64,000 nt of DNA from Candidatus Hecatella orcuttiae (GTDB taxonomy: Archaea > Thermoproteota > Bathyarchaeia > Hecatellales > Hecatellaceae). Shown here piece by piece: positions 12,186 to 14,840 of the stretch. The DNA lies in contig MTLY02000003.1 in the NCBI GenBank assembly GCA_002011035.2, forward strand, positions 416,001 to 480,000, in the 5' to 3' direction. Position 1 is the stretch's first letter. Every line of letters starts with the position of its first letter. The position numbers were made by a program, and so were the translations under genes. The notes beneath the pieces were generated by a model that worked only from the letters and a program-made list of their open reading frames with translations, did no database searches and had not been told where the DNA came from.

Positions 12186-12863
12186 TCAAGGCAACTTTTT
12201 CTTAAGGTTAATGACTCTATCGGCTAGTTTAGCCATTTTTCTTCTATGCGTTGTGGCCAGTAGGGTTTTTCCTTTCAGGATTTTTCCCTTGAAAGAGGCT
12301 ACCATCATATCCTCGGTGAGGGGATCGAGGAAGTCCGTGGGTTCATCTAAAAGCAGAATCTCAGGATCGGAAATCATCGCCCTAGCGTAGGATACCATGC
12401 GGTTTTCTCCAACGCTGAGAGTTGCAACCTTCCGGTGGACGTAGTTAGAAATCCAGAAGCTCTCCAAAACCTCCTCCACGCGTCTTCTCCGTTCATCCCG
12501 GCTCATCCCCAAAAATACTAGGGGAAGTTCCAGGTTTTCGTAAACCGTTAAAGAAGGGATGAGGTTAGATACTTGGAAGACAACCCCCAGCTTTCTCCGC
12601 CTTAACTTTGAAACAACGTCCTCAGGAAGCTTCGTTATGTTCACTCCGTCGACGTAGATGTTTCCAGCTTGAGGCCTGTCCAAACCTGCAACCAAGTTTA
12701 TCAAGGTCGTTTTCCCGCATCCGGTGGGGCCTACGACGGCGAGAAATTCGCCTTTTTTCACCTCGAAGGATACGTCCTCAAACACTGGGAAAGATTTCCC
12801 ATGCCCGTCGTAGACTTTCCTCACATGCTCCACACGGATGGCGGAGTTACTCGACATGGGCAA
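12186..12863 (-). CDS. ABC transporter ATP-binding protein (LolD/MacB/FtsE-like)
   Basis: Walker A GPTGCGKT, Q-loop, variant signature LSVGE, Walker B LLLDEPT, H-switch TTH. Confidence 0.88.
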   Translation of the reverse strand: MPMSSNSAIRVEHVRKVYDGHGKSFPVFEDVSFEVKKGEFLAVVGPTGCGKTTLINLVAGLDRPQAGNIYVDGVNITKLPEDVVSKLRRRKLGVVFQVSNLIPSLTVYENLELPLVFLGMSRDERRRRVEEVLESFWISNYVHRKVATLSVGENRMVSYARAMISDPEILLLDEPTDFLDPLTEDMMVASFKGKILKGKTLLATTHRRKMAKLADRVINLKKKLP

Positions 12864-13365
12864 ATATCTCCGCAGTCATTCGGTGAGATTTTTTCCACAC
12901 AGAATATGCTCCGAGAGCGGCTCCCGTAAAAATCCCCAGCAGGCTGAAGAGGAGAGCGAACCCCAAGGCTTCTGCCAGCGTCAGGAGGCTCCAGCCTTTC
13001 AAAGGCAGCAAAGCCGGCAACAGAACTAGGAGGCTTACCCCCACCAGCAGCCCTAGAAGGGCTCCTAAAAGCCCTGTGAGGAAGAGTTCGATCATGAAAG
13101 AGAGGGTAATGGTCTCCCTAGTGGCGCCCAACGCCTTGTACACGCCTAGGTCGTAGTCAACCCGGTCGGCTAGGTGGAGCATGGTAGCTGAGAGGGCTAC
13201 GATGGTCAAGATGAGGATGGAAGCCGCTGTAATGACGGCGCCCCACCCTTGAACCAGCATGGACAGAACCATGAAATCCGCTACAACGACGGCTAGAATT
13301 CCGATTATGAGTTTAACCTTAACCCACGTGGTTTGGAAACGTTTTAAAGCTAACCAAAGAGACAT
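12847..13365 (-). CDS. Minimal FtsX-like ABC permease
   Basis: About 4 TM segments with DLGVYKALGAT...SFMIE motif of the FtsX/MacB core; overlaps the ATPase gene. Confidence 0.7.
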   Translation of the reverse strand: MSLWLALKRFQTTWVKVKLIIGILAVVVADFMVLSMLVQGWGAVITAASILILTIVALSATMLHLADRVDYDLGVYKALGATRETITLSFMIELFLTGLLGALLGLLVGVSLLVLLPALLPLKGWSLLTLAEALGFALLFSLLGIFTGAALGAYSVWKKSHRMTAEIFAHVE

Positions 13366-13460: not shown

Positions 13461-14138
13461 TCACTCTTCGTCAGTTTGGAGACGTACGACGAGGGGTTCC
13501 GCGGGGCTTCTCTCCTCTTTTACCTCAAGTTTCGGATATTCTTGGTTTTGGGGGACGGTTAAAGAGTTTAAGGTGGCTTCTATGTCTCTCTTCTCGTTTA
13601 TCGTGCTGTTGATCACCGATATCAAGTAGTCGCTGGCAAGCTTGTAGGTTTCGTCGCCCAGCTCTCCGGTTTTATGCTGAACCTTGAGGTGGCCTAGAAA
13701 TCTTTCCAAGTTTTTAACATGGTGTTCCAAGTCGGAGATTTTTCTGTTCAGAGACTCTATCAGGTTTTTATGGGCTTCTTCAAGCTTGGTCAAAGAGTCT
13801 TTATATTGCTGGCAAAGTTCTTCGTAGACATGGCTTGGGATCTCCTGGCTCTTCAAAAGCTCATCCAACGCTCGAAAACGACGCTGGGTTAAGTCGTTGT
13901 CTTTTTTGAAGTTTTCCGCTTCAATCTTCCATGAAGGCACTAGAATCAACGTATCGCCTTCGACTATTATCTGCGCTCTGGAGAACTCTTCAAAGCTTCC
14001 TCCTCGGTCAACTCCCACCGAATGAAGCTGCCCATCTGGGTCTAATGTCACACCTACCACGTAGCCTATGTACCGTCTGTAGGTGTCCCTCGCCGGTTTC
14101 CCTATGAACCTTTGAAGGGCTTCATATTGAAGACTCAA
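13461..14138 (-). CDS. cdvA: CdvA-like cell division protein
   Basis: N-terminal PRC-barrel-like FIGKPARDTYRRYIGYVVG...ILVPSWK, long coiled coil (RFRALDELL, GELGDETYK), C-terminal EPLVVRL strand. Confidence 0.8.
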   Translation of the reverse strand: MSLQYEALQRFIGKPARDTYRRYIGYVVGVTLDPDGQLHSVGVDRGGSFEEFSRAQIIVEGDTLILVPSWKIEAENFKKDNDLTQRRFRALDELLKSQEIPSHVYEELCQQYKDSLTKLEEAHKNLIESLNRKISDLEHHVKNLERFLGHLKVQHKTGELGDETYKLASDYLISVINSTINEKRDIEATLNSLTVPQNQEYPKLEVKEERSPAEPLVVRLQTDEE

Positions 14139-14166
14139 CTGTCATCTCTCCCAGATTTTCTGAGAT

Positions 14167-14460
14167 TTAAAACAGTCTTCTCAGCTTATCGAAGAAGGAC
14201 TCCTTCTTAGGCGCGTCGTTGGACTGTGGGGAGATGGCTGTTTCGCCGGTGGTTGCTACTTCCACCATCGGTGATGGTTCTGAAACAGCGGGTGTCTCTT
14301 CTAGTTTTACGGCTTTCCTGAATTTATGTCCGCAGCTTCGGCAAGCGTATAGGGTGACTCGCATGGCTCTGCCTTTCCCGGATTTGGGCTTTACATCCCA
14401 CGACTTGTTGATGTTCAACTCTTCTCCTTTACATCGAGGACATACGGTCAACGATTTCAC
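14167..14460 (-). CDS. Cren7-like Zn-ribbon protein with low-complexity linker and C-terminal amphipathic helix
   Basis: CPRC...KSWDVKPKSGKG...LYACRSCGHKFR resembles the Cren7 core (KxWxLxPKG..G...LFxxPxxGxxFR); tail KKESFFDKLRRLF. Confidence 0.6.
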   Translation of the reverse strand: MKSLTVCPRCKGEELNINKSWDVKPKSGKGRAMRVTLYACRSCGHKFRKAVKLEETPAVSEPSPMVEVATTGETAISPQSNDAPKKESFFDKLRRLF

Positions 14461-14840
14461 CGCAAGTGTCTTCAGTGAAATAAAAATTAAGATTTACGTG
14501 TTGGATAAACTTCTAAATGGGCTTGAAAAGACCTTCGGGGAGCGTTAAACTTTGAAATGATATACATATTAGACTAAATGAAGCGCTGATTAAGCTTGTT
14601 GAATAAAAGAAACGTGTAAAAAAGAACGCTGGCAAAAGCCTTTATCGACGTTTTCAACGGGATTTTACCCGAAATATCGAGTAAAAAAGCGGTTTTTCCT
14701 TAAACATCCCCTTCAAGAGAAGATTGAATGAGGTTTACTATAAGATTCTGGATCAAAGTGTTTATTTTCCTCGCGAAAAGAAGGGCTTATTAAGGTTTCA
14801 TGGAAATAGAAAACCGTTCAGCCTTCGCGGGGAAGTTTCC

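Follow-up and report, generated by a model that had tools for sequence, protein, structure and literature searches.

Within a 64,000-nucleotide stretch of the genome of the archaeon Candidatus Hecatella orcuttiae (the whole stretch is hereafter called the window), a small gene on the minus strand lies directly upstream of cdvA and encodes a 97-amino-acid protein that combines a zinc ribbon, a linker and a short end helix. We propose that this is an accessory protein of the Cdv division system, whose ribbon would bind DNA and whose end helix would bind the membrane in the way of the N-terminal helices of Sulfolobus CdvB, and we give this reading roughly even odds (about 0.5). The features of the locus are the following:

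14167..14460, minus strand: gene of the 97-amino-acid protein, stop codon included, with zinc ribbon, linker and end helix
14296..14448, minus strand: Cren7-type four-cysteine zinc ribbon (residues 5-55), assigned from conservation, model strands and sequence links
14431-14442 and 14332-14343, minus strand: the CxxC knuckles of the ribbon
14209..14295, minus strand: variable linker rich in P, S, T, E and A (residues 56-84), predicted to be disordered
14170..14208, minus strand: conserved basic amphipathic end helix (residues 85-97, KKESFFDKLRRLF)
14480..14489, minus strand: A/T-rich TATA-like box, read from the sequence, with its centre about 24 nt upstream of the GTG start
14139..14166, minus strand: 28-nt spacer between the ribbon gene and cdvA (spacers of 26-52 nt in 9 other genomes)
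13461..14138, minus strand: cdvA, encoding a PRC barrel, the CdvA coiled coil and a conserved C-terminal EPLVVRL-type peptide
12847..13365, minus strand: gene of a short FtsX-type permease (172 amino acids), next after cdvA (PF02687, E 1.3e-9)
12186..12863, minus strand: ABC ATPase gene, overlapping the permease gene by 17 nt (PF00005, E 1.8e-35)

Translation of 14167..14460 from its GTG start codon bears out the description of the open reading frame (ORF) in an earlier note on this DNA, namely two CxxC pairs (C7/C10 and C40/C43), a K-W-P-K string, a linker and a C-terminal end of KKESFFDKLRRLF. The signature residues run K19-S-W21...P25-K26 and then L37-Y38-x-C-x2-C-G-x2-F47-R48, and the stretch rich in P, S, T, E and A occupies approximately residues 55-84. 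A word-indexed search returned relatives of the protein (n=11), and over 9 homologues the mean identity to the window residue was 0.67 for residues 5-55, 0.17 for residues 56-84 and 0.59 for residues 85-97. Because the homologues retain both ribbon and tail but differ widely in the linker, the pattern of substitution argues that 14167..14460 is a real conserved gene and not a chance ORF. An overlapping plus-strand ORF (14219-14548) was rejected as a gene: nothing supports it, and it is the minus-strand frame that agrees with the pattern of conservation. The public gene call (P0001) is of 83 amino acids, covers 86% of the query and begins at L15, so that the first CxxC is lost; the gene call of the closest relative (P0002) is shortened in the same way. 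A TTG at codon 4, giving 94 amino acids with three residues before the first cysteine, is an equally good start, since the homologues begin three residues before theirs.

The gene 28 nt downstream is a true cdvA, and the distance that had been claimed is exact. Its product matches the Pfam CdvA model PF18822 (E 8.7e-23, 81 bits with a cut-off of 30), the match to the PRC barrel is weak, and the match to the NCBIfam model cell_div_CdvA (1.6e-31) lies under that model's cut-off; it is the sole cdvA found in the genome. A GGGAG at 14148-14152, 9 nt before the TTG start of cdvA, lies within the spacer, and the arrangement suggests that the ribbon gene and cdvA are co-transcribed. The position of the TATA-like box suggests a leaderless or near-leaderless transcript, and the box and the GGGAG would together fit one transcript starting at or near the ribbon gene. 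The FtsX-type permease gene possibly belongs to the same operon as cdvA, and the order ribbon gene, cdvA, permease and ATPase recurs in 6 of 6 related loci; an FtsEX-like pair beside cdvA is worth attention as a link to the division scaffold. In one public assembly cdvA occupies two reading frames (L003:4337-5048), through either a frameshift or an assembly error.

CdvA ends, after a variable acidic linker, in the EPLVVRL-type peptide, which is conserved over the last 10 residue-bearing columns of the CdvA alignment. Sulfolobus CdvA binds CdvB through its C-terminal peptide, and the CdvB there has a C-terminal winged helix (10.1101/2025.09.15.676241); by analogy the EPLVVRL-type peptide is likely the counterpart of that CdvB-binding end peptide. 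A complex prediction for CdvA with the 97-amino-acid protein returned a score of 0.00, which gives no verdict and thus has no bearing on CdvA binding either way.

With regard to the N-terminal domain, a family profile was searched against 1.84 billion representatives and matched 66 proteins at E <= 0.001. A Pfam scan took in 63 of these, leaving out those already in the query alignment, and 4 match Pfam Cren7 at E <= 0.001, with 3 above its cut-off (P0065 at 52.8 bits, P0049 at 37.6 and P0045 at 29.5). These Cren7-matching relatives are four-cysteine proteins of 56-60 amino acids. The window protein shares 41% identity with P0065 over 49 residues (pairwise E 7e-10) and P0065 in turn matches the crystal structure of Cren7, 3kxt (E 4.7e-10), so that the two pairwise alignments can be chained (window protein to P0065, P0065 to 3kxt), and they place K24, W26, L28, P30 and K31 of Cren7 on K19, W21, V23, P25 and K26 of the window protein. 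Cren7 intercalates L28 into DNA (PMC5042384), which is also contacted by K24 and K31 (PMC8927968); binding of this type takes place in the minor groove and has no known sequence specificity (PMC5042384). The family shows no variation at K19, S20, W21, V23, P25, K26, C40, C43, F47 and R48; the domain is strongly basic; and a KLEE string directly after the ribbon core is kept in the homologue alignment. An AlphaFold2 model built on an 11-row alignment (mean predicted local distance difference test score, pLDDT, of 71) has strands at residues 15-23, 33-40 and 46-52 with pLDDT of approximately 82-93, and a helix at 89-96, with residues 57-84 at a pLDDT below 50. The alignments thus relate the N-terminal domain to Cren7 by way of the four-cysteine Cren7 proteins.

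The C-terminal helix is kept in 17 of the 17 tail-bearing sequences examined, all of which follow one pattern: a Ser is followed by two hydrophobic positions, a variable one, a basic one and a further hydrophobic one; then come two residues that are nearly always basic and, two further on, a hydrophobic residue. Ahead of the helix stand the invariant Ser and a residue that is acidic in most members, and the hydrophobic positions keep a fixed spacing. In the window protein the tail has a hydrophobic moment of 0.77, the top 11-residue stretch of the protein, and a charge of +1, or +2 if K86 is counted, and it is the 11-mer of highest moment in 15 of the 17 sequences (moments 0.60-0.78, net charge +1 to +3); the expectation that the tail would prove amphipathic and conserved has therefore held. 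A lipid-binding index is 1.16-1.55 across the family. The tail resembles the terminal membrane-targeting helices of the MinD, FtsA and CdvB type in being terminal, placed after a flexible stretch, helical, amphipathic and net basic. The strict tail motif occurs at the C-terminus of only one other reading frame of at least 100 amino acids in the genome, and a genome-wide search for other proteins ending in the motif gave none that was convincing. The string ESLFERI occurs both in tails and in some Bathyarchaeia CdvB N-termini, and among 120 CdvB homologues a strict tail-like pattern is found in 7 and a looser one in 40. A 6-residue tail pattern, which was picked post hoc, occurs 39 times in 859,867 positions, and these include 2 CdvB N-termini as well as the tail. 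The likeness between the tail and CdvB N-termini is loose, and we treat it as a lead only.

The distribution of the family was examined in 301 Bathyarchaeia genomes, its own genome included. The ribbon is present in 97 of them, and ribbon-only relatives of approximately 50 amino acids are widespread. Tail-bearing forms occur in the window's own family alone (Candidatus Hecatellales or Hecatellaceae in the titles of its public members). They are present there in 10 of 14 genomes, and in all 10 the gene lies 26-52 nt upstream of cdvA; six of the ten loci were also found in the species collection. For ribbon-only loci of other families, cdvA was found within flanks of approximately 1.5 kb in 0 of 20, and in 0 of 12 further loci with flanks of approximately 3 kb. 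The tail is seen in the cdvA-linked form only. Given 10 of 10 tail-bearing genes near cdvA and none among the loci elsewhere, the cdvA linkage is conserved, within one family, and an adjacency unique to this genome, which the earlier note had named as a refutation, is not what was observed. Other forms of the ribbon were also met. A widespread form of 132-146 amino acids, in which a coiled coil comes directly after the ribbon, occurs in several Bathyarchaeia families away from cdvA (L049-L057), a ribbon form of 583 amino acids has a long acidic tail (L058), and a 248-amino-acid protein has a C-terminal ribbon behind a large N-terminal part (L059) and may be the GIY-YIG nuclease fusion listed by Kaur et al.

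Relatives of the protein join the ribbon to further parts of the Cdv system. The linker is variable in length and sometimes has a winged helix inside it: four long forms, of 175-198 amino acids, carry an extra domain within the linker that is most like the C-terminal part of this genome's 294-amino-acid CdvB (BLASTP 9e-10 and 1e-6), and in a long-form model a winged helix is flanked on both sides by disordered stretches, with the same end helix after them. No such CdvB-type winged helix is present in the window's 97-amino-acid protein. A fold search with the long-form model returned no match at E <= 0.001; only winged helices and ribbons of a generic kind came up, and among the fold matches listed there is no entry for the winged helix of Sulfolobus CdvB. 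By sequence, the long-form protein has no meaningful match among solved structures, and none to the solved Sulfolobus CdvB winged helix over that part; this genome's CdvB itself matches solved CdvB2 (5.4e-43) and CdvB (2.6e-28) over the ESCRT-III core only (ESCRT, endosomal sorting complex required for transport).

Another family (in G013) has a permuted protein of 282 amino acids that runs from an N-terminal amphipathic stretch through a CdvB-like winged helix (2e-12) and a long linker to the ribbon, and its gene comes after three others on the same strand: cdvB, an Lrp-like gene, and cdvC, whose product has MIT, AAA and Vps4_C domains. A CdvA coiled coil (PF18822, 33.9 bits) is joined to a C-terminal ribbon in proteins of 349-446 amino acids from two further families, and in six genomes a CdvB-type winged-helix match lies approximately 3.5 kb from the coiled-coil-ribbon gene on the same contig. 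The genome of the window itself encodes a stand-alone ribbon (an 83-amino-acid ORF in L011) and a CetZ-type tubulin with a ribbon whose fourth zinc ligand is not Cys, a fusion that matches a listing by Kaur et al. The genes of the permuted protein and of the tubulin are as follows:

L060:2598-3446, minus strand: gene of the permuted protein, behind cdvB, cdvC and the Lrp-like gene, with neighbours to 5725
L010:313-1650 (G000 contig C3, outside the window): 445-amino-acid CetZ-type tubulin with the ribbon at its C-terminus

Beside one CdvB paralogue, at L013:2131-3108, lies the gene of a 325-amino-acid protein with N-terminal segments that look membrane-spanning and a C-terminal half that, by eye, is like the CdvB core; Pfam gave nothing useful for this protein.

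Given this observed domain make-up, conservation and set of genomic links, we infer the DNA binding, the membrane binding and the cellular role of the protein in the following way. The gene product would assist the Cdv (ESCRT-III-type) division system as an accessory protein, probably made together with CdvA from a common transcript. Its ribbon would most likely bind double-stranded DNA without sequence preference, a flexible linker of approximately 30 residues would join the ribbon to the end helix, and the last 10 or so residues would form a short basic amphipathic helix that most likely lies in the membrane surface. The protein could thereby keep DNA close to the membrane at the site of CdvA and CdvB assembly, with a possible role in chromosome segregation or in keeping the ring and the nucleoid in register. 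It would be placed at the site of Cdv assembly by co-expression with CdvA and, in the long forms, by the winged helix. In Sulfolobus the CdvA peptide docks on the CdvB winged helix, and the CdvB-like winged helix of the long forms may likewise dock on the conserved CdvA C-terminal peptide, whereas the short form is without that domain. We favour a membrane role for the tail because of its length, charge and terminal position, because an amphipathic stretch stands at either end of related proteins, because the N-terminal amphipathic helices of CdvB, CdvB1 and CdvB2, of 9-11 residues, bind membrane in vitro (10.1101/2025.09.15.676241; PMC13051332), and because Sulfolobus CdvA filaments show no membrane binding alone in vitro (10.1101/2025.09.15.676241). 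More tentatively, and with less confidence than in the reading just given, the window protein may be the minimal member of a class of Bathyarchaeia adaptors between Cdv proteins and chromatin, built from three interchangeable modules: 1) a ribbon on DNA; 2) a winged helix on the CdvA end peptide; and, 3) a membrane helix. Such a minimal member could, together with CdvA, give the ring a hold on the membrane and a register with the nucleoid.

Several results weigh against the proposal that the protein ties DNA to the membrane, and they concern the ribbon, the tail and the gene order. For the ribbon, Pfam Cren7 (PF11520) has no match to the 97-amino-acid protein at E <= 0.1 and 0 matches at E <= 10 in the whole 97%-complete genome, with a Sulfolobus control positive; the interface lysines K42 and K48 of Cren7 are replaced by A39 and H45; and a widened profile gives 6.3e-5 for the TFS/RPB9 ribbon 1qyp but only 0.23 for Sulfolobus Cren7. 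A Foldseek search with the short-form model gave no match at E <= 0.001, the Cren7 chains coming at E 0.18-0.5 with template-modelling (TM) scores of 0.57-0.60 by target length, and other ribbons higher. By fold score, the NrdR ribbons (Z 5.0-5.7), an RNA polymerase I ribbon (Z 4.0) and EF-P (Z 4.0) are followed by Cren7 at Z 3.4-3.5 (root-mean-square deviation 2.7-2.8 over 51 residues), and all fold matches of the model lie below the level that would mean more than a common arrangement. Thus, of the Cren7-like domain claimed in the earlier note, the sequence chain by way of P0065 stands, whereas neither the Pfam model nor the fold search singles out Cren7; likewise, the structural comparison it had suggested yielded the three strands and the end helix, but NrdR and RNA-polymerase ribbons outscore Cren7. 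The TFIIS/TFS model PF01096 reaches E 0.0095 and 16.2 bits with the window protein, below its cut-off of 21. The inter-strand loop of TFS is acidic, whereas the loop between the ribbon strands is basic in the window protein, and with no N-terminal TFS domain present either, we reject the reading as a TFS-like transcript-cleavage factor.

The same comparisons would be expected if the ribbon did not bind DNA and were instead a protein- or RNA-binding ribbon of the TFIIS/NrdR kind, its likeness to Cren7 reflecting shared zinc-ribbon descent: ribbons of NrdR and RNA polymerase head the structural matches, 1qyp scores better than Cren7 with the widened profile, and Kaur et al. put Cren7 within the zinc-ribbon fold (PMC5906684). 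We regard this as highly improbable, given that the K, W, hydrophobic, P and K of the Cren7 DNA-contact positions are invariant in the family and that the domain is so basic. In the account of Kaur et al. (2018), Cren7 is a zinc ribbon without its former metal (PMC5906684), and the mixed likeness in sequence and structure agrees with that account; we therefore use the label "Cren7-type zinc ribbon" rather than membership of PF11520.

A small DNA-binding-type domain encoded by the first gene of an apparent cdvA operon could also belong to a regulator of that operon or of other division-gene transcription. Such a role would agree with the resemblance of the ribbon to ribbons of the transcription machinery, 1qyp by profile and NrdR as the top structural match, and regulators of the ribbon-helix-helix type tied to ftsZ2 or cdv genes exist in other archaea. 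However, minor-groove binding of the Cren7 type is not known as sequence specific, a regulator has no evident need for an end helix, a CdvB-like winged helix or fusions to the CdvA coil and to tubulin, and the basic inter-strand loop sets the ribbon apart from that of TFS. We therefore find this explanation distinctly unlikely.

The tail has its own difficulties as a membrane helix. Shuffles of the last 14 residues reached its hydrophobic moment in 108 of 2000 cases (approximately 5%), the lipid-binding index of the window tail, 1.26, is "possible" and not clear, and with a 10-residue tail scoring matrix the 30 best hits include none of the genome's CdvB N-termini. Moreover, a peptide that docks on a protein could also show the invariant Ser and the mostly acidic residue found ahead of the helix. 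This leads to the main rival, in which the protein remains a DNA-binding adaptor linked to the Cdv system and uses its end helix to dock on a protein partner, which could be CdvA, a CdvB paralogue or the MIT domain of CdvC/Vps4, in place of the membrane. Together with the fixed hydrophobic spacing, those two features have the look of a peptide motif more than of a loose membrane helix, and CdvA likewise shows a CdvB-binding end peptide after a variable linker (10.1101/2025.09.15.676241). The genome encodes one MIT-bearing CdvC and three CdvB paralogues, and the window tail fits the LxxRLxxL pattern with F89, K92, L93 and L96, which is what had suggested an ESCRT MIM1 motif in the first place. 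Across the family, however, the last of these positions is hydrophobic in just 2 of 17 members, the other 15 having S, G, A or R there, so the fit is confined to the window sequence and its closest relative, and a MIM1/Vps4 role is not supported by the aligned tails. The CdvB paralogues of the genome already carry end motifs, proline-rich and of the KEKFPxLP type, which we take to be MIM2-like; the comparable amphipathic stretch of the G013 protein is N-terminal; and the length and charge of the helix match those of the CdvB membrane helices. On balance we consider a docking peptide rather unlikely, while giving it more weight than the other alternatives.

The third difficulty is the distribution, in that occurrence in one family could mean that shared descent alone explains the gene order. 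The protein would then be an ordinary chromatin protein, the Cren7 equivalent of its lineage, and its place beside cdvA an inherited order without functional meaning. Every cdvA-linked case does come from one family, Pfam finds no canonical Cren7 in the 97%-complete genome, and ribbon-only relatives are spread through the Bathyarchaeia at the frequency given above. Nevertheless, the genome has a separate stand-alone ribbon gene, the tail is confined to the cdvA-linked form, and other families show independent links of the ribbon to cdvB-cdvC, to the CdvA coiled coil and to a CdvB-like winged helix, all of which makes a purely chromosomal role quite improbable in our estimation.

If the protein does join DNA to the membrane in the service of the Cdv system, it would bear on two questions: how ESCRT-dividing archaea couple chromosome segregation to the placement of the ring, and how CdvA reaches the membrane, given that its filaments in Sulfolobus show no membrane binding in vitro. 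The gene family is a small, concrete candidate for coupling DNA to division. Should the three-module scheme be true, it would be an archaeal counterpart of Noc in its working logic and a possible answer to how CdvA, by itself no membrane binder in vitro, is placed. Its reach is limited to one uncultured family for the tail-bearing form. Full-text searches of the literature on Cren7 with CdvA and on CdvA, Bathyarchaeota and zinc ribbons brought up only Kaur et al. and the preprint of that same paper as relevant, and the supplements of an ESCRT survey (10.1101/2024.02.06.579148) might list this arCOG. The view that no equivalent had been described has to be given up, as Kaur et al. 2018 (PMC5906684) and Noc (PMC4331003) precede the present family. 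The concept of a DNA-binding ribbon in division is that of Kaur et al. 2018; three features that extend their 2018 prediction appear to be new, namely the conserved tail helix, the variants with a CdvB-like winged helix, and the operons shared with cdvA or with cdvB-cdvC.

Among known systems, Cren7 (PF11520; 3KXT, 2JTM; Thermoproteota) is like the window ribbon in its strand order, its K-x-W, its intercalating hydrophobic residue, its P-K and its F-R. In contrast to Cren7, the window ribbon retains four zinc ligands, fails the Pfam model and is without equivalents of K42 and K48, and the window protein has a linker, an end helix and a cdvA neighbour where Cren7 is without a tail. The tail is comparable to the N-terminal helices of CdvB, CdvB1 and CdvB2 and to helix alpha-0 of ESCRT-III, which are likewise short (9-11 residues), terminal, basic and amphipathic and belong to the same division system, but it stands at the C-terminus of a non-ESCRT protein and its sequence likeness to them is loose. 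MinD and FtsA also carry a C-terminal membrane-targeting basic amphipathic helix after a flexible stretch. Kaur, Iyer, Subramanian and Aravind (2018) traced Cren7 back to zinc ribbons, predicted division roles and described the Cren7ZnR family together with CdvA-coiled-coil-Cren7 and tubulin-Cren7 fusions (PMC5906684). Their fusions to tubulin and to the coiled coil recur in this analysis, whereas the Cren7ZnR consensus, with its KTW...RITIT-type core and acidic C-terminal motif, differs by eye from the window family in both core and tail; a search of their supplement for Bathyarchaeota entries, those of the B24/B25 genomes included, shows only a 51-amino-acid protein and the tubulin fusion, and no tail-bearing cdvA-linked form or winged-helix form. 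Finally, Noc of Bacillus subtilis is likewise a DNA-binding protein with a terminal amphipathic helix that brings DNA to the membrane and couples it to division (PMC4331003), but its fold is unrelated (ParB-like, with a CTP switch), its sites are sequence specific and the division it serves is based on FtsZ, so that the likeness to the window protein is one of analogy only.

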